A DNA stretch of 64,000 nt from an uncultured Elusimicrobia bacterium (GTDB lineage: Bacteria; Elusimicrobiota; Elusimicrobia; UBA1565; UBA9628), in contig CAZIBN010000012.1 in assembly GCA_964537395.1 (NCBI GenBank), forward strand, positions 633 through 64,632, given 5' to 3'. Shown piece after piece: positions 1,691-51,053 of the stretch; the first letter of the stretch is position 1, and each line of letters starts with the position of its first letter. The notes under the pieces were generated by a model. That model worked only from the letters and a program-made list of their open reading frames with translations. It was not told the DNA's origin and searched no databases. Position numbers and translations under genes: made by a program.

Positions 1691-4600
1691 GAATCTTCAG
1701 CTTCTGGCGCCATAGTTTCCGGCGTCAAGCTCGACCATCCCCGCGAAGTCCTCGACGCGCTCGACCTGAAGCTGGCCGTGCTCCTGGCGCGGATCAAGAG
1801 CGACGATCTCATGACTCCGGCGCTGACGGCGGCCCTGCCCGAGGACCTCGCCAAGCTTAAGACCGGGTACAAGGCCGCGCAGGACAATTACATCGCGGCC
1901 GAAAAAGAGGCCCCTGACGCGGCCAAGCCCGAGCTCAAGGCGTTGTCCGCCGCGAGCACGGGCCAGCTCATCGTCGAGGCCGTCGTCGAGGCCGATCTCG
2001 GCGGGGTGCGCAAGGACCTGGCCGGCATGCTCGCCTCCGAGGTCTCGCTGAGCCGGCGTCCGGACCAGATCCCCGAGTCGGACTGGGCCGCCGTCGAGAA
2101 GGCGGCTCCGGATTTCAACGCGGGGCTTCTGCCCCTGTCCTCGAGGGTGGAGAAGGTCCGCAACCAGCCGCCGTACGCCGTCAAGGACGTCGAGGACGCC
2201 TACCGTCCGCTCGCGGACGCGCTCGACGCCTCGTTCCAGAATCTGCGCGGGCGCGCCTCCAGGATCGACATCGCCGGGCTGCTCGCAGCCAAGCCCAAGA
2301 CCGCCTCGGGCGACGCCGCCGGGGCCTTGATGGCCGAGGTCGCCCGGGCCCTTCCGGCGGATAAGGCGGCCCTGCTCAAGCCGCAGCTGGCCGCGGTCAA
2401 CACCAAGCTCGCGGGCTATCTGCACTCGGGAAATCCCGCCGACCTGACCTCGGCGCTCGCCGAGATCGACCGGCTCTACGACGCGGCCAATATCAAGAAG
2501 ATCGACCGCGCCGACATGTTCGACCGCATCGGCAATGCGGCGCAGGCGCGCGCTCAGACCTCCGTGCCGGCAGCGAGCGGCGCCGCAATCCAGTTCAGCG
2601 TGGTCCCGAAAGCTGTAGGGATCGACTCGAAGGACGTCCCGCTCCCGGCGGTCGAACCGGGAGAAAAGAAGTCTGCGCCGGCCGCGAGCAGCCTCGACGC
2701 CGACGCGCGCCTGGCCATGCAGACCGCAATGTCCGCGATGGGGCATATCATGCCCGACGGCGACCCGGCGAAGGCGGCGCTTGACGCGCTTTCGGCCGTG
2801 GGCGTGCCGGGCTCGAACAGCTTCGTCTCCGCCAAGGCTCGGGAGCTCTCTGAGATGCTGCTCGGCCGCGCGGCCGGGCTGAAGCGGGAGGACGCGGACG
2901 AGAAGGCGGCGAAGGGATTGGCAGACGCTTACGCGCTGATCGAGGCCCGGGTCACCTCCGTCGTGCTCGATGCGCCCGACCGCACCTTGGACCCGGCTCC
3001 GGCCGACGCCGAGAAGCTGGCGGCCTACAACATCAGGTGGGAGAAGAACTCCGCGGATCAGCTCAAAAAGCTCAAGGCGGTCGAGGCCGAGCTGACGTCC
3101 ACCGGCAAGACCGATCTCGGCGTCACGGGCCCCGGGGTGTGGGGCTGGAGCGAGGCGCTTCTCGCGGGGACTCCGGCGCTCGTGCCCGAGGCCGCCGCCA
3201 AGGCCCTCGCGCCCGCTCGCGCGCGGGCGAAGAAGCTCGTCGACCTGATCAGCTCCCTGCGCCATCAGCACGAGATCAGGGAGCTGGACCTGACGACCCC
3301 CAAGTGGGGCAAGGAGCTGAGGCTCACCATCCTCTATGCCGACGGGAAAGGCGCCGCGGGCGATCTCGGCGCGACGGGCAATGCCGTGGTCATCCAAACG
3401 GTCAAGGAGCGCGAGAGCCTGGAGAAGGCCGCGGGGATCCTCGCTCGATTCAAAGCGGTGACGCTCACCGGAGACCCCGCCGCCGACCGCGCGGCGCTCG
3501 ATTCGTTCTTCGACAAGGCCGAGAACAAGGCCGATAACCTGCCGCCGATGATGTCCGATTGGGTCCGGGTGCGGGACTTCGACCGGGGGAACGCCAAGCT
3601 CAAGGCCGAGGGCAAGCCGGAGCTGCCTCGCCCGCCGGGCCTGCCCGGAACGGACGAGACCTACAGGCGCTTCGTCGTCGCCGACCGGTATGAGCGGATC
3701 AAGGCGATCCCCGACCCGACCCAGCAGCAGATGGCGCAGCTGCACGAGACCTACTTTGCGATGAACCGCGCCGCCTACATCGCTCTCGGCTGCGATCCGG
3801 CCCAGCTCGCCGCGGCCGAGGGGTCCTCCGGATCCGCGGCGCAGGAGCCAGCGGCCGGCGAGGCTCAGGCCTCAGGGGGGAATCTCGATCCGAAGGAAAA
3901 GGCGGCCTTCTGCTCCGGCTTCCTCGCGAACGCGCGCCGGCCGGAGACCTATGACGTGAACGGGTTCTATGCGCAGAAGAAGCTCGCCGACCAGATCAAG
4001 CCGTTTCTCAACGACAACGAGCTGGCCAAGGCCGCGGCGAACCTGGGCACGACGACCGCGGAGATGCAGCGGAGCCTGAGAGCGATGTCTCCGGAGCTGC
4101 GCGCGAAGTTCAGCGAGAAGGGCGTGGATGTGGAGGGCATCCTCAACCAGGGCGAGCGCGGCCAGGTCCTGCGCTGGGCGGTCGTGGTCGACCAGCTCAA
4201 GACCGCGGGCGACGACGCCGGCTGGCGCGCGTACAGCGACGTGGTCATCCGCAACGTCTATGGCGACAAGACCGACTTGGCCACCAAGGCTCAATCCAAT
4301 AAGATGCGCGCGGCCGCGGCCTCGGAAGACGCGGCCGGCATGGCGGCGTCCCTCGGGGATATTCAGAATCCGGCGGTCCTGACCAACGGCTACCTCGCGG
4401 CCCTGCCCAAGATGCTCGGGTCCGAGCGCTCGCGGCGCTCGGCGCGCGATCGCGCGCTGCTGTTCATGTGGAACGGCGGCGCCAAGAAGGGCGAGGCGCC
4501 GGCGGAGAACACCTATGCGGGCCTGCTCCTGGCCGTGGCGGGTCAGTACGAGGCCGACGCCGCCAAGCCGGAGAATAAGGAGGGCGCGGCCGAGCTTAAG

Positions 4601-22446: not shown

Positions 22447-23985
22447 TCAGAGGGAGGGGACGCCGAGGAGCTGGAGCACCTTCGCGACGAAGGCCTTTTT
22501 CTCGAAGGGCTTGAGCATGACCTCGTTGGCACCGGCTTCCTTGGCGCGCGCGAGCGCGTCCGAGTAGCCGGTCAGCACCATCACCGGGGGGCGCTTCTCG
22601 GGAGGCAGGCGCTTGAGGCGCGCGAGCACCTCGAAGCCGTCCATGCCCGGCATCATGACGTCGAGGATGACGAGGCTCGGCAGCTCCTCCTCGATGCGCT
22701 CGAGCGCCTCGAAGCCGGAGTGCGCGGTCGCGATCGACAGGTTGCGGCTGACGCTCGCGAGGAAAAGCATGAGCACCTCGACGAGGTCGGGGTTGTCCTC
22801 GACGATGAGGATGCGCTTCTTGTGCACGGTCTCGGATCCGTCGACGATGGTCTCGGCGGCGTCCTTCTCGGCGACCGGAAGCTCGAGGCGGGCGGTGGTG
22901 CCGCGGCCGGAGCCCTCGCTCTCGATCCAGATGCGGCCGCCGATCGCCTCGACGATCTGCTTCGAGAGCGGGAGGCCGAGGCCGAGGCCCGGGTACTCGC
23001 GCGTCGGGCCCTGGTTCGCGGCGGAAAAAGTGTCGAAGATGTGGGGCAGGACCTCGGGCGGCACGCCCGGGCCGGCGTCGATGACGGACAGGCGCGCCTG
23101 ATCCTTCTCCACGGTGACGACGACCTTCAGCGCGCCTTCCGGCGGGCTGAACTTGCAGGCATTGGAGAGCAGGTTGTCGATCACGTCGCCGAGCTTTTCC
23201 TCGTCGGCCATCACCCAGACTTCGTTCTGCGGATAGCCCGCCGTCAGCTTGAGCTTGCGGCGGCGGATCTCGCGCCCGGCCCGCTCGAGCTGAGCCGCGA
23301 CGAGCCGGCTGAGGTCGACGGGCTTGAGCAGGAGCTGCTTGCGGCCCTCGTTGACGTCGCGGATCCGGAGGATGTTGTTGAGGGTGGTCATGAGGCCTTC
23401 GGCGCGGTCGATGATCGAGCCGAGCGCCTTCTGCTGGGCATCGGAGAGCGGCCCGAGGCTGCCGTCCTTCATCGTGTTCGCGTAGCCGATGACGACCGTC
23501 AAAGGGGTGCGCAGCTCATGCGAGACGTTCGCGATGAACTCGTTCTTCATCTGGTTGACCTGGCGCAGCTCCATGTTCTGGTTGACCAGGTCGCGGATCT
23601 CGATGACTCGTCGCAAAAGCTGCCCCAGGTCCGTTTGACGAAGATCCTTCTGGGTGATGTAGTCCATCGCGCCTTTCTTCATGGCGGAGACGGCCACCTG
23701 CTCATTTCCGGCGGCGGTCGTCATCACGACGGCGGTCTTGGGGTGGTGCTGCCGTATCTTTTCGAGGATATCGAGCCCGTTGGTGGGCGGAAGCAGATAG
23801 TCGAGAAAAACGAGGTCGAAAGGCGTGCCCTTGAGCTTATCGAGGGCTTCGTCGCCGTTGGCGGCGGTGGACACCTTAAGGCTCACCCCAGGGACCTTTT
23901 CCAGCTCGGCGCGAAGGATGGTGCGCGCGTCCGCCTCGTCGTCTACGACCAGGACGGAGAAGGTTGTCTCGGCAGTGGTTGCCAT
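22447..23985 (-). CDS. Hybrid histidine kinase (REC-HisKA-HATPase-REC)
   Basis: N- and C-terminal receivers, SHELRTPL H-box, NLLSNACKF, DAGPG, GLGLGL. Start 23985 is preferred because the ATG at 23994 overlaps a TGcTACAAT -10 box. Confidence 0.92.
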   Translation of the reverse strand: MATTAETTFSVLVVDDEADARTILRAELEKVPGVSLKVSTAANGDEALDKLKGTPFDLVFLDYLLPPTNGLDILEKIRQHHPKTAVVMTTAAGNEQVAVSAMKKGAMDYITQKDLRQTDLGQLLRRVIEIRDLVNQNMELRQVNQMKNEFIANVSHELRTPLTVVIGYANTMKDGSLGPLSDAQQKALGSIIDRAEGLMTTLNNILRIRDVNEGRKQLLLKPVDLSRLVAAQLERAGREIRRRKLKLTAGYPQNEVWVMADEEKLGDVIDNLLSNACKFSPPEGALKVVVTVEKDQARLSVIDAGPGVPPEVLPHIFDTFSAANQGPTREYPGLGLGLPLSKQIVEAIGGRIWIESEGSGRGTTARLELPVAEKDAAETIVDGSETVHKKRILIVEDNPDLVEVLMLFLASVSRNLSIATAHSGFEALERIEEELPSLVILDVMMPGMDGFEVLARLKRLPPEKRPPVMVLTGYSDALARAKEAGANEVMLKPFEKKAFVAKVLQLLGVPSL

Positions 23986-24063
23986 CGCCGGCATTGTAGC
24001 AGACGAATCCCAAGCCGTCCACCCCGCCGACTCGGCGCTGTAACGGGGTGTGAGGCTCGGGAC

Positions 24064-24195
24064 GGCCCGGCGGCGGATTCATGTCCTCCGGGGTCGGCGG
24101 GGATTGACCCCGCCTCCGGGGTCTGTCCGCGACGTATGAAGAACCCTTGTCGCGGCAGACCCAGGCCCCATCGGACATGAATCCGCCGCCGGGCC
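24064..24195 (+). other. Structured repeat element E1 (three-way junction)
   Basis: Perfect 23-bp IR (24064-24086 / 24173-24195) enclosing a 7-bp hairpin with ATTGA loop and a GGGTCTG..CAGACCC hairpin. Imperfect pairing extends to about 24011-24240. Confidence 0.75.
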
Positions 24196-24299
24196 TCGGC
24201 AACCTCACCCCATTTCAGCGCTGGCGCGGTGTCGGGCTTGTGCCCTCGTTATCGCTTGGCGCGGGGGCAGCGGGGCGATAACGGTGACGCGACGGGTTA

Positions 24300-24421
24300 G
24301 GGGCGGGGGTATGGTGTCCGGAGGGGCGTGGGTCGCGCGACCAGAAATGCTCATGCGGTCGCGCAAGACCCGAGCGCGGCTCAATGCCGCGCGTCCCCTC
24401 CGGACACCATACCCCCGCCCC
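24300..24421 (-). other. Structured repeat element E2 (same architecture as E1, opposite strand)
   Basis: Perfect 27-bp IR (24300-24326 / 24395-24421) enclosing a GGGTC..GACCC hairpin and a 7-bp hairpin with loop TCAAT (ATTGA on the minus strand). Confidence 0.75.
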
Positions 24422-24458
24422 TCCCCGCATCGGCGTTCCCCGTTGTCGTCACGCTTCC

Positions 24459-24488
24459 TTGATAAGGCGCCGACCTAAAAGGTAAAAT
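24459..24488 (+). promoter_or_regulatory. Sigma70-type promoter of the hpt-ftsH operon
   Basis: TTGATA, 18 nt, TAAAAT; ATG at 24497, 8 nt downstream. Confidence 0.6.
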
Positions 24489-24496
24489 GCACGTTC

Positions 24497-25042
24497 ATGG
24501 CCACCCAAACCGCGATGCATCCCGCTTTGAGCAGGATTTTGCTCGATGAAGCGACGCTGTCAGCCCGGATCAAGGAACTGGGGGCGCAGATCACGCGCGA
24601 TTACGCCGGCAAGCGTCTGGTGGTGGTGGGAGTTTTGAAGGGCAGCGTCATCTTTTTAGCCGATCTTCTGCGCGCGATCGGCCCTGAGGTGGACGTCGAG
24701 ACCGACTTTGTCGCCGTCTCGTCCTACGCCGGCACGGCCTCGACCGGGGCGATCCGGACCTTGCTCGACCTGCGCCAGAGCCCCGAAGGCAAGGACCTGC
24801 TCCTCATCGAGGACATCGTGGACACCGGCCTGACCTTGACCGCCCTGACCGAGACTTTGCGGGCGCACCGGCCGAAGTCGCTCGAGGTGTGCACCTTGCT
24901 CGACAAGACCGAGTGCCGGAAGGTCCCCTTTACGCCGAAATACGTGGGATTCAAGATCCCGAATGAGTTCGTCGTGGGCTTCGGCCTGGATTATGATGAA
25001 CGCTATCGGCAATTGCCTTGCGTGGGAGTGTTGAAGATCTAA
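24497..25042 (+). CDS. hpt: Hypoxanthine phosphoribosyltransferase
   Basis: VGVLKGSVIF, VSSY, LLIEDIVDTGLT, FVVGFGLDY. Confidence 0.95.
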   Translation: MATQTAMHPALSRILLDEATLSARIKELGAQITRDYAGKRLVVVGVLKGSVIFLADLLRAIGPEVDVETDFVAVSSYAGTASTGAIRTLLDLRQSPEGKDLLLIEDIVDTGLTLTALTETLRAHRPKSLEVCTLLDKTECRKVPFTPKYVGFKIPNEFVVGFGLDYDERYRQLPCVGVLKI

Positions 25043-43963: not shown

Positions 43964-44257
43964 TTGGAAATCACGGAAATCCGCGTCCACCTGCGCAAAG
44001 AGGATAAGCTTAAGGCGTTTGCAACCGTCACTTTTGACCACTGCTTCGTGGTCCGCAATCTAAAGGTGATCGCGAACGAAAAAGGGCTGATTCTTTGCAT
44101 GCCGTCCCGGAAGATGCCCGACGGCAGCTTCAAGGACGTGGCGCATCCGATCACGGTTGAATTTAGAGCTCTTCTGGAGAAAAAAGTGTTCGCCTGCTAC
44201 GAGCGGGAAGTTCTCCAGGCCGCTGCAGGGAAGTGTGTCGACTCCCGGGTGGTGTAA
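43964..44257 (+). CDS. spoVG: SpoVG family nucleic-acid-binding protein
   Basis: MEITEIRV...KLKAFATVTFD..FVV..LKVI....GL...MPSRK..DG.FKDVAHPI. Confidence 0.92.
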   Translation: MEITEIRVHLRKEDKLKAFATVTFDHCFVVRNLKVIANEKGLILCMPSRKMPDGSFKDVAHPITVEFRALLEKKVFACYEREVLQAAAGKCVDSRVV

Positions 44258-44313
44258 TGGTAACACAGAGGCCTTTGAAGCCTTTATTCGTGGTTCGAGT
44301 CCACGCCCGGGAA
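44243..44313 (+). tRNA. tRNA-Gln (anticodon TTG), CCA not encoded
   Basis: Acceptor TCCCGGG/CCCGGGA, D arm GTGT-AATGGTA-ACAC, anticodon arm GAGGC-CTTTGAA-GCCTT, T arm CGTGG-TTCGAGT-CCACG. Confidence 0.95.
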
Positions 44314-49680: not shown

Positions 49681-49746
49681 GGTGTCAGGCCTATAGTTAC
49701 TTTAAATTCTTTTTGGAGTAATTGAAGAAACTATAGGCCTGACACC
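49681..49746. repeat. REP-like palindrome, 18-bp perfect arms
   Basis: GGTGTCAGGCCTATAGTT (49681-49698) / AACTATAGGCCTGACACC (49729-49746), AT-rich 30-nt spacer, between convergent genes. Confidence 0.85.
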
Positions 49747-49759
49747 AATATCAGCCCAG

Positions 49760-50143
49760 TTAACCCCAGTAGGAGCCCATGAAGCCTTTGTCGTCGGGCT
49801 TCACGGTGAGGCGGATGTGGTCGAGGAGGCCGCGCAGCGATCTCTCCTGGCCGCCGGTGAGGTTGAAGGCGATGCCGTATTGGCGGGCGTCGGGATCGTT
49901 GCCGGACCGGCCGGCGTCGCGGGCCACGCGCCCGGGGAGGTCGAGCGTGCCCTCCTTCCATTTGACGCTGATACGGTAGGTCGAGCCGGTCTTGAGCATG
50001 CCCCGCACTCGCAGAAGGCAGCCGGTGAGGCTCATGTCGAGGAGCTGTCCTTCGCCGATGCGCACGCCGCCCACGGGCCCGCTGAAGACCTCGACGGAGA
50101 GGTCGCTCGGGAAGCGTGCGTGGGTGCGGTTGGACTTGTCCAT
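49760..50143 (-). CDS. Stand-alone PilZ-domain protein (c-di-GMP receptor)
   Basis: RTHARF (RxxxR) and DMSLTGC (DxSxxG). ATG 50143 is preferred. Confidence 0.85.
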   Translation of the reverse strand: MDKSNRTHARFPSDLSVEVFSGPVGGVRIGEGQLLDMSLTGCLLRVRGMLKTGSTYRISVKWKEGTLDLPGRVARDAGRSGNDPDARQYGIAFNLTGGQERSLRGLLDHIRLTVKPDDKGFMGSYWG

Positions 50144-50191
50144 CGTGATAAAAGGTAGCACTCTGCGGTTACGGCGTCATGTCAGGTGTCA

Positions 50192-50262
50192 GGGGTCAGG
50201 CTTTCCGATGTTGCAATTCGTCCGGCCAATACGAGAATTGCAACATCGGAAAGCCTGACCCC
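50192..50262. repeat. REP-like palindrome, 28-bp perfect arms
   Basis: GGGGTCAGGCTTTCCGATGTTGCAATTC (50192-50219) / exact reverse complement (50235-50262). Confidence 0.88.
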
Positions 50263-51053
50263 TAGCTGGAGCTGGAGGTGTAGCGGGCGACGGAGTTCTT
50301 CCAGAACAGCCAGGAAAGGGGGAGCGCGACGGAGGTCAGGGCCAGGGCGTAGACGACCCAGCCGGCGGACAGGCGTCCGAGCAAGGCTTTGGCGGGGAAC
50401 GTCGTCATGACCGCGATCGGGATGCCCAAGGTCAGAGCCCAGCGCACGGCGGGCGCGTACACGTCCACGGGGAACTTGCCCATGAACATCACGTCGCGGT
50501 AGATCCAGATGGCGCTTTCGAGCTCCTGGGTGCGCACGGCGAGGGCTGCGACGAGGATGTGGATCGCGTAGATCAGAGCCACGCCGTTGGCCATCAGCAG
50601 GGCATAGGCGGCGTATCGCTCCCAGCCCAGCGGCGGCAGGCGCGCGAAGACCATGCCCGTCATAACGATGACCGGCATGATGGTGATGATGTCGAGGAAG
50701 TCCACGGACGAGCAGGTCATGCGGAATAAAGGAGAGCAGGGCTGGACGAGGTAAAAGTCGAAGTCGCCCTCGCTGACGGTGCGCCGCGCCCCGTAAACGC
50801 CGCGAAAGAAGATCTGCGCGGTCATGTCCACGAGGTTGAAGGTCATGAAAAACAACGCCGTCTCGACGAGCGAATAGCCGGCGACGGTCTCGACATGCTG
50901 AAAGACGGCGGCCATGAAGGCGAAGAAGAAGAAAAGCCGGATCATCTTGCCGAGCAAAAACCCGAAAGAGCCCAGGCGGTAGGTGAGCTGGGCCTGCATC
51001 GCCATCGACGCGGTGCGAAGCCAGATGCGCCAGTATTTTTGGGCGATCTGCAT
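50262..51053 (-). CDS. ABC-2 family transporter permease
   Basis: 6 TM segments, GDFDFYLVQP..P, FMGKFP; adjacent to the ABC ATPase. Confidence 0.88.
   Translation of the reverse strand: MQIAQKYWRIWLRTASMAMQAQLTYRLGSFGFLLGKMIRLFFFFAFMAAVFQHVETVAGYSLVETALFFMTFNLVDMTAQIFFRGVYGARRTVSEGDFDFYLVQPCSPLFRMTCSSVDFLDIITIMPVIVMTGMVFARLPPLGWERYAAYALLMANGVALIYAIHILVAALAVRTQELESAIWIYRDVMFMGKFPVDVYAPAVRWALTLGIPIAVMTTFPAKALLGRLSAGWVVYALALTSVALPLSWLFWKNSVARYTSSSS

Follow-up and report, generated by a model that had tools for sequence, protein, structure and literature searches.

The window analysed here, a stretch of 64,000 nucleotides from an uncultured Elusimicrobia bacterium, carries one copy of a non-coding mosaic repeat of about 390 bp, whose A-type and B-type halves are the two folded structures E1 and E2. 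The element is a previously undescribed multi-copy palindromic repeat of a known kind of bacterial repeat; no earlier description of it was found in Rfam or in the papers searched and, as far as sampled, it is confined to a clade of high-GC, uncultivated Elusimicrobiota. On balance, it is probably a non-autonomous REPIN/BIME/MITE-like repeat with branched, nested-palindrome units. An earlier note, made from the letters of this DNA, had taken E1 and E2 for two copies of one thing; they are instead two unit types of one composite.

E1 and E2 fold as one common three-way junction that consists of a long closing stem (P1), a 7-bp hairpin with an ATTGA loop (P2) and a second, bipartite hairpin (P3; GGGTCT..GCGAC / GTCGC..GACCC). 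The common architecture proposed in the earlier note is borne out by folding, with z-scores of -12 to -15 and none of 200 shuffles folding equally well, and the core pattern shared by the two units occurs twice in the window against 0.00 expected occurrences. The A-type unit E1, a Y-shaped nested palindrome, lies at 24064..24195 on the plus strand (covariance model score 132.8 bits, E 2e-25). Its P1 is a perfect stem of 23 bp (24064-24086 / 24173-24195), exactly as first described, and leads through a 3x3 internal loop (TCC 24087-24089 / ATC 24170-24172) into an inner P1 of GGGG (24090-24093) and CCCC (24166-24169). P2 pairs 24096-24102 with 24108-24114 around the ATTGA loop at 24103-24107, and P3 pairs 24119-24125 and 24127-24133 with 24149-24155 and 24156-24162 around a loop at 24134-24148. 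The B-type unit E2 occupies 24299..24422 on the minus strand (100.7 bits, E 1e-18). Its P1 is a perfect stem of 28 bp (24299-24326 / 24395-24422), one pair longer than the 27 bp counted originally; P2 is formed by 24374-24380 / 24386-24392, with the ATTGA loop as the reverse complement of 24381-24385, and P3 by 24330-24342 / 24357-24371. In the identity matrix, E2 shows 66-72% identity to other B units and represents a divergent subfamily. The 7-bp hairpin with its ATTGA loop had been correctly recognized in both units, as had the GGGTCT hairpin, but the ATGA reported in the loop of the latter did not hold up as a family-wide feature.

The two units are separated by a spacer at 24196..24298 (plus strand) that contains the third hairpin of the earlier description, present at 24247-24283 and formed by CGTTATCGC (24247-24255) and GCGATAACG (24275-24283), as well as a B-proximal motif, GACGCGACGGGTTA. 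This spacer is the counterpart of that of other copies, in which partly conserved modules, among them an ATCGCC-GNAG-GGCGAT hairpin and GCCGTT hexamer repeats, are combined into a mosaic. On its outer side, the A unit is preceded by the 5' terminal flank GTGAGGCTCGGGAC (24050..24063, plus strand), defined from a flank alignment of 52 copies and a pair alignment; it corresponds to the family consensus AACGGC-YNNN-GAC ahead of the closing stem, and its terminus is approximate. The corresponding flank of the B unit (24423..24437, minus strand) reads AACGCCGATGCGGGG on the minus strand and matches the family consensus AACGCCGATGCGGGCC. With E1 being of type A and E2 of type B, the whole element thus runs from about 24050 to 24437. 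Folded as single-stranded DNA, the entire composite forms two independent Y structures plus the spacer hairpin (z = -14). A covariance model search of the window returned E1 and E2 only, and no third unit.

The Hpt protein encoded in the window is 89% identical to that of the Elusimicrobiota metagenome-assembled genome (MAG) JBBQVX01, whose orthologous gap holds an intact E2-equivalent with another closing stem and an internally deleted E1-equivalent. A core pattern common to E1 and the JBBQVX01 copy was run on 596 Gb of species-representative genomes and gave 44 matches, 31 of which were in Elusimicrobiota MAGs, the complete genome CP096137 among them; the remaining 13, in other phyla, were rejected as chance matches, none scoring with the covariance model. 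That model, built from 36 pattern-found copies, detected 100 sense-strand units (98 distinct) at 66 loci of genomes and metagenomes, with scores of 69-154 bits, so that the covariance model search of related genomes suggested in the earlier note did reveal many further copies. Every named source of these units is an Elusimicrobiota MAG. The antisense reading of the same sites scored 28-44 bits, and the units therefore have a clear polarity. The two strands of E1 and E2 fold equally well, so that folding energy alone gives no strand; what sets the polarity is the order of the branches together with the ATTGA loop. A strict joint pattern of E1 and E2 (TGTCC..GGGG..ATTGA..GGGTCT) had no match in the genome contig collection, to which the genome of the window does not belong; viral contigs gave no pattern match, and annotated plasmids and phages gave no blastn match. 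At the gathering thresholds of Rfam 15, only a tRNA was detected in the window, and nothing at the element there or in 18 other loci, while a permissive scan (E <= 10) returned only microRNA/VA-type long-hairpin noise far under the gathering scores. The failure to match the element to known RNA classes by eye was thus confirmed at the level of gathering scores. Of the outcomes that the earlier note had named as speaking against its proposal (a known Rfam family, or neither further copies nor covariation), none was seen: the analysis found no Rfam match, many copies and very strong covariation.

Among the 98 distinct copies, 92% of the cells are paired and compensatory changes are seen in 41 of 46 pairs. 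Double-change cells numbered 736, compared with 224 +/- 10 in shuffles and 75-165 with slid partners. All three helices covary, P3 for instance occurring as GCGAC/GTCGC, GCGAT/ATCGC, GCGGC/GCCGC and GCAAC/GTTGC. The loop of P2 is ATTGA in 51 of 52 folded copies, and the junction and most of P3 are near-invariant, forming together with P2 a conserved core, while the sequence of P1 drifts and its complementarity holds. P1 accumulated about 557 double changes against 12 single-side (wobble-type) changes, and in minimum-free-energy folds it comprises 1584 Watson-Crick pairs, 29 G.T pairs and 24 A.C mismatches. If selection acted on the RNA of one strand, G.U should be tolerated and A.C purged; this strand-specific signature is absent from P1 (29 G.U versus 24 A.C). 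The similar numbers of G.T and A.C, with neither strand favored, speak for a palindrome in DNA and against a selected RNA. The pairing is of DNA type, which points to a palindrome kept by the folding of either strand or by arm-to-arm templated correction.

In most genomes the two units of an element are of differing type. In type A, the closing stem is GGCCCGGCGG-var-TCATGYCC, the TCC/NTC internal loop is conserved and the outer flank is AACGGC-YNNN-GAC; the unit is followed by TTATCAAGGAATCG. In type B, the closing stem is rich in purines and varies more (GGGGAGGAGG...), a bulged G is frequent and the outer flank is AACGCCGATGCGGGCC; this unit is followed by GATGA or GATTAA. The two types are homologous and inverted, with the termini AACGGCC..GACGGCCCGG and AACGCCGATGCGGGCCGGGG, a unit length of 125-135 nt and a conserved 5' flank, AACG(G)C-N-ATG-NNN-GGCC. 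All 35 pairs are convergent (A -> spacer <- B), with spacers of 1-127 nt, and most singlets are contig or locus ends or deletion remnants. Since the halves always face each other, the composite reads identically from either outer end, like transposon ends or the inverted REP doublet of a REPIN or BIME. The P3 type of E2 was found again in the A unit of another locus (L108), which shows that copies exchange modules. At one locus, L119, there are hints of a possible higher-order array. The spacer is non-coding, as its indels are not multiples of three, and the element has no ORF of its own. A 14-codon ORF starting in the P3 loop of E1 was rejected as not conserved (other copies have ATAA where ATGA stands), as was a 41-codon ORF across the spacers of the MAG C5_bin.68, the frame of which is broken by non-triplet indels and the ATG of which is absent from other copies. 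A sigma-54-like GGCACG-N4-TTGCA in a single spacer (L123) is likewise not conserved.

In the window, the element is located within a 500-bp gap that separates two divergent genes. The minus-strand neighbor encodes a hybrid histidine kinase/response regulator (Response_reg, HisKA, HATPase_c), and the plus-strand neighbor is hpt, followed by ftsH, folP and glmM. A promoter-like site for the kinase gene (23993..24021, minus strand; -35 TGGACG, 17 nt, -10 TACAAT) is kept in L001, and one for hpt (24459..24488, plus strand; TTGATA-18-TAAAAT, 10/12 matches) is kept in both L001 and L107. Both sites lie outside the element and point away from it, leftward and rightward, respectively. The -35 region of hpt, CTTCCTTGATAAGG, is the reverse complement of a motif, CCTTATCAAGGAA, found 3' of A units elsewhere. 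As the promoter-like sites of both neighbors are flush against the start codons, the transcripts of the kinase gene and of hpt are probably leaderless. The element thus takes up the whole interval from the -35 box of one outward promoter to that of the other, where it is probably untranscribed, and a transcript-level role in the window is therefore unlikely. No promoter or U-tract terminator belonging to the element was detected in the window copy or in the flanks of other copies. Most likely, the window copy is a passenger between outward promoters, and no role in the expression of hpt or the kinase gene need be assumed.

Across the family, the element is always intergenic and lies among housekeeping genes, with neighbors that include lgt, uvrC, type II/IV secretion ATPases, response regulators, ftsH and mraW. 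The strict pattern revealed at least 3-5 loci per MAG, and four loci are known in the complete genome CP096137, three of which belong to a single subfamily. Many copies start 0-12 nt past the stop codon of a gene reading into the sense unit, and several fill a convergent-gene gap exactly, while about 3 of about 16 distinct loci are divergent intergenic regions (by crude ORF calls), which is roughly the chance share. The site next to lgt is filled in five MAGs (loci L127, L133, L132, L129 and L130), always in the same orientation and in the states A+B, A remnant + B or A + B remnant, and is empty in four relatives (L128, L131, L137 and L134, with gaps of 0, 4, 7 and 24 nt, respectively); filled and empty sites interleave in a neighbor-joining tree of Lgt. 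Internal deletions shortened the A unit in L001 and L132 and the B unit in L129. Neither the lgt sites, compared filled against empty at their junctions, nor the other copies showed a target-site duplication; the termini are approximate enough for one of 1-2 bp to be missed. All presence/absence differences could be attributed to loss by deletion, and no insertion was observed. The hpt locus of a distant relative (L002) was rejected as an empty site, as its synteny differs.

At some orthologous loci, B cores are 90-96% identical, compared with 77-95% for the flanking coding DNA; the arms are 62-97% identical and still complementary, and at some loci the subfamily is switched. The element is vertically inherited at many sites, sometimes overwritten by another subfamily, and lost by internal deletion. 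Five B units of C5_bin.68 share 95-98% mutual identity, and the B unit at its hpt locus is only 69% and 77% identical to the positional orthologues in the window and in L001, respectively, with flanking DNA at about 84%. These identities indicate that copies are homogenized within one genome by concerted evolution.

Several of these properties are shared with known bacterial repeats. REP units are imperfect palindromes of only about 20-40 nt that carry a conserved GTAG tetranucleotide at the 5' side and reach hundreds of copies per genome in classical cases, and in REPIN-RAYT systems the genome that carries the repeats has one copy of a RAYT (Y1 HUH) gene with repeats on its flanks; REP-RAYT systems were reportedly treated by Nunvar et al. 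in 2010. REPINs are inverted REP doublets with a spacer, for which common compensatory changes and excision have been described (PMC3116915, Bertels & Rainey 2011), and a preprint describes their vertical persistence over long times (bioRxiv 10.1101/2021.07.10.451892). The Elusimicrobiota element resembles these systems in being an extragenic, non-coding palindrome, mainly present as inverted doublets with a short spacer, in its compensatory hairpin changes, in singlets as decay products, in long vertical persistence, in the absence of target-site duplication and in a folded single strand as its presumed recognition form. However, its units are branched three-way junctions of about 130 nt rather than simple hairpins of 20-40 nt, their flank is AACG(G)C..ATG without a GTAG-type 5' tetranucleotide, the doublet is composed of two distinct unit types present at a handful of loci per genome, and no RAYT gene was found in 0.79 Mb of element loci. 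Enterobacterial BIMEs combine Y and Z REPs into mosaics by way of defined linker motifs. They share with the element two opposed unit types in a mosaic, partly conserved linker modules and a frequent site after gene 3' ends, but there is no sequence similarity, and the branched Elusimicrobiota units are of far greater size. T- or Y-shaped DNA hairpins are also formed by the inverted terminal repeats of parvoviruses and AAV, palindromes of about 125-145 nt. The likeness here is purely structural (a three-way junction, a long closing stem, two small arms with perfect arm complementarity, and inverted orientation at the two ends of a unit), whereas the host is a bacterial chromosome, no replicon lies between the ends and there is no Rep gene, so that the comparison is an analogy only. 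Among bacterial MITEs, Correia/NEMIS and ERIC elements have long terminal inverted repeats and adopt a long hairpin fold (PMC3184786, PMC2229807). Like these, the element is small, ORF-less and intergenic, has inverted homologous ends, shows presence/absence between relatives and would form long hairpins if transcribed. It differs in that neither a target-site duplication nor a parent IS was found, in that its outer stems vary and its interior is conserved, the reverse of typical MITEs, and in that each 'end' is itself a nested palindrome.

The earlier note had suggested either a new ncRNA family or a non-autonomous mobile ssDNA/RNA element. Of these proposals, the REP/REPIN-like version is the best supported, the retron-like and IS200/605-like versions are not supported, and a dedicated ncRNA gene is the weaker reading. 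The REP-like option is favored because the element is multi-copy, intergenic, convergent in 35 of 35 pairs and present or absent at an orthologous site, because it decays by deletion, is homogenized within genomes and has Watson-Crick-only stems with no strand bias, and because its position in the window is probably untranscribed. The most serious competitor is a structured RNA at the 3' end of the gene reading in, acting as a U-tract-less terminator, a 3' exonuclease block, an RNase III substrate or the target of an AUUGA-loop protein, with the convergent pair serving as a bidirectional terminator or insulator cassette. Transcription from either side would indeed meet a sense unit first, which fits the uniform convergence, the proximity to stop codons and the exactly filled convergent-gene gaps; the conservation of loops, junction and P3 stem along with a covarying P1, and a B core exceeding the neighboring coding DNA in conservation at some loci, are also in line with it. 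We nevertheless consider it rather unlikely, given that the element stands between divergent genes in the window and about two other loci, and in the window between two outward promoters, that it lacks a promoter or U-tract terminator of its own and an Rfam match, that wobble pairs are nearly absent with G.U not in excess of A.C, and that halves are freely deleted at orthologous loci, with relatives having no element and gaps of 0-7 nt. The lack of strand bias in strictly Watson-Crick palindromes would also suit duplex or cruciform DNA that is recognized by a host protein, such as a nucleoid-associated protein or a topoisomerase, and kept for chromosome organization at a handful of loci, much as the BIMEs of E. 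coli bind gyrase, IHF and Pol I. The low copy number, the vertical retention, the two-fold pseudo-symmetry of the composite and its invariant inverted half-sites (CCGCGAC..GTCGCGG) agree with such a site, but conserved strand-asymmetric features, namely the 3x3 internal loop of A, the bulged G of many B units and the order of P2 then P3, would be meaningless in a plain duplex. Together with the loss of the element from loci with no visible consequence and the lack of a known candidate protein, this makes a host binding site quite improbable.

Retron msr/msd, an IS200/IS605-type transposon end or guide RNA, and an integron attC site bear a superficial likeness to the element: retron ncRNA has a long closing stem with internal hairpins, IS200/605 and attC hairpins are recognized as folded single strands, and target-site duplication is absent. 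Any of these identities is very improbable. Within about 3.5 kb of the element at 28 loci, there is no recurrent gene for a reverse transcriptase, for TnpA/TnpB/IscB or for an integrase, and the co-occurrence with HUH transposase or reverse transcriptase genes that the earlier note proposed to look for was not seen, as no transposase, RT, Y1/HUH or DDE family recurs among 113 neighboring proteins. IS200/605 ends share one strand and attC arrays one orientation, whereas the units of the element are on opposite strands; the R''/R' core sites of attC (RYYYAAC / GTTRRRY) are absent from the window sequence, read directly; the neighbors are housekeeping genes with no RT directly downstream, contrary to a retron; and the retron, HEARO and IS605-orfB families of Rfam gave no match. 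A hammerhead or other small ribozyme was also rejected, the junction strands being 1-4 nt long and lacking a CUGANGA/GAAA core and an Rfam match, as was a rolling-circle nick site, CTTGATA (antisense, in the 3' flank of A), because the motif varies (TTATCA, TTATGA, TCATCA). Tblastn with IS608 TnpA and E. coli RAYT sequences as queries, a weak test, found nothing in the 0.79 Mb of element loci, and A and B ends parted by a gene, as expected of an autonomous parent, were found at none of the 66 loci, the scans of whole collections being limited to patterns.

Each nested palindrome of about 130 nt, once single-stranded, folds into a Y-shaped three-way junction, and under the preferred REPIN-like reading the folded, strand-specific core would be the recognition site of a trans-acting enzyme. 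Such an enzyme may copy or move the doublet via a single-stranded DNA stage, as RAYT and IS200/IS605 Y1 transposases do with REP hairpins, and the near-perfect Watson-Crick pairing of P1 would be due either to selection on hairpin formation or to quasi-palindrome correction templated within the strand. As no mobilizing enzyme was found, this mechanism is inferred only. Several observations weigh against the REPIN-like reading itself: there is no enzyme, no autonomous parent, no insertion event and no visible target-site duplication; the copy number is low (four known loci in CP096137); and the conservation of the B core and the proximity to stop codons would also fit a host function such as a terminator or 3'-end stabilizer. 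More speculatively, and with a rather low likelihood, the Y units may be DNA (or RNA) substrates of a clade-specific, unrecognized trans-acting enzyme or binding protein, which would constitute a second, structurally distinct partnership of the REPIN-RAYT kind. The three-way junction and the invariant ATTGA loop would then be what is recognized, and one arm would serve to regenerate or correct the closing stem, in the manner of rolling-hairpin copying. Regeneration of stems from one arm would account for stems that are hypervariable between copies and almost perfectly Watson-Crick within each.

Most of what is known of bacterial palindromic repeats (REP, BIME, REPIN and MITE) comes from Proteobacteria and a small number of other cultivated groups. 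The family described here adds an uncultivated phylum to their range and is unusual in its anatomy of branched units of about 130 nt with a near-invariant 5-nt loop, two types of which are locked in a convergent doublet. In practical terms, the element breaks metagenome assemblies, many copies being found at contig ends, inflates intergenic regions from 0-7 nt to 300-400 nt, and could be mistaken for an sRNA gene. With 98 distinct copies and about 560 double changes in one stem, it provides an unusually clean data set, suited to asking what keeps long palindromes perfect, single-strand folding selection or templated self-correction, and the element itself is a concrete bait for the protein that reads the core.

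When reverse-complemented, the hpt promoter's -35 region (CTTCCTTGATAAGG) reads CCTTATCAAGGAA, a motif normally found 3' of A units of the element. This A-unit-type motif lies upstream of hpt at 24452-24468 in the window, at ~3950-3966 in the related hpt locus L001 and upstream of position 2960 in locus L107. In the window, the sequence before it is GGTCGGCGCC, similar to the end of an A closing stem. The hpt promoter may have been built on the fossil of one more unit. The 'empty' lgt site of MAG nzgw213 (L134 ~2733-2756) retains 24 nt, CGGACCCGGGCCGGCGAGGGGCCG. Their sequence is like that at the outer ends of an A closing stem, and a deletion may have left them as its footprint.

The start regions of the two divergent genes beside the element, a kinase/response regulator gene (23985-24021) and hpt (24459-24499), each harbor a -10 box only 7-8 nt 5' of the ATG, and both genes appear leaderless. 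The probable start codon of the kinase/regulator gene is the ATG at 23985 rather than the upstream one at 23994; the latter is overlapped by a TACAAT box and is absent from L001.

The spacer beside B units contains an AACGGC/GCCGTT hexamer microsatellite with 3-5 repeats, their number differing among copies (L112, upstream of 169; L119, 6707-6829 and 6972-7079; spacers of L081 and L087), and the outer flank of A units is made of the same hexamer. At L119 (6829-7079) the spacer is present on both sides of a B unit, in inverted orientation, and is followed by the contig end. Many other copies of the element are located at contig ends as well. Two explanations fit the L119 arrangement: a higher-order array (A-spacer-B-spacer'-A'), or an artefact of assembly at a repeat. 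The element is also present in CALRXP01 (L106 and L130), a MAG labelled Candidatus Endomicrobium trichonymphae. The genome of this species is low in G+C, whereas the CALRXP01 DNA around the element has 67-69% G+C, and the species label or the binning looks doubtful.

The sole Rfam match in the window was its single tRNA gene (44243-44313, 66 bits). A second family of long perfect hairpins, unrelated to the Y-shaped element and with arms of 29-30 bp, is represented by two copies (49681-49746 and 50191-50263), one on either side of a small PilZ-domain gene on the minus strand (49760-50161). Their termini are conserved (GGKGTCAGGC...GCCTGACMCC), while their interiors are variable and AT-richer. 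The same termini are present at other Elusimicrobiota loci (L098/L133, L152 and L181), and a half-site, GGCCTGACCCC, is found upstream of hpt in the more distant relative L002. This second family appears to be a REP-like repeat of the same Elusimicrobiota clade, simpler in build than the Y-shaped element.
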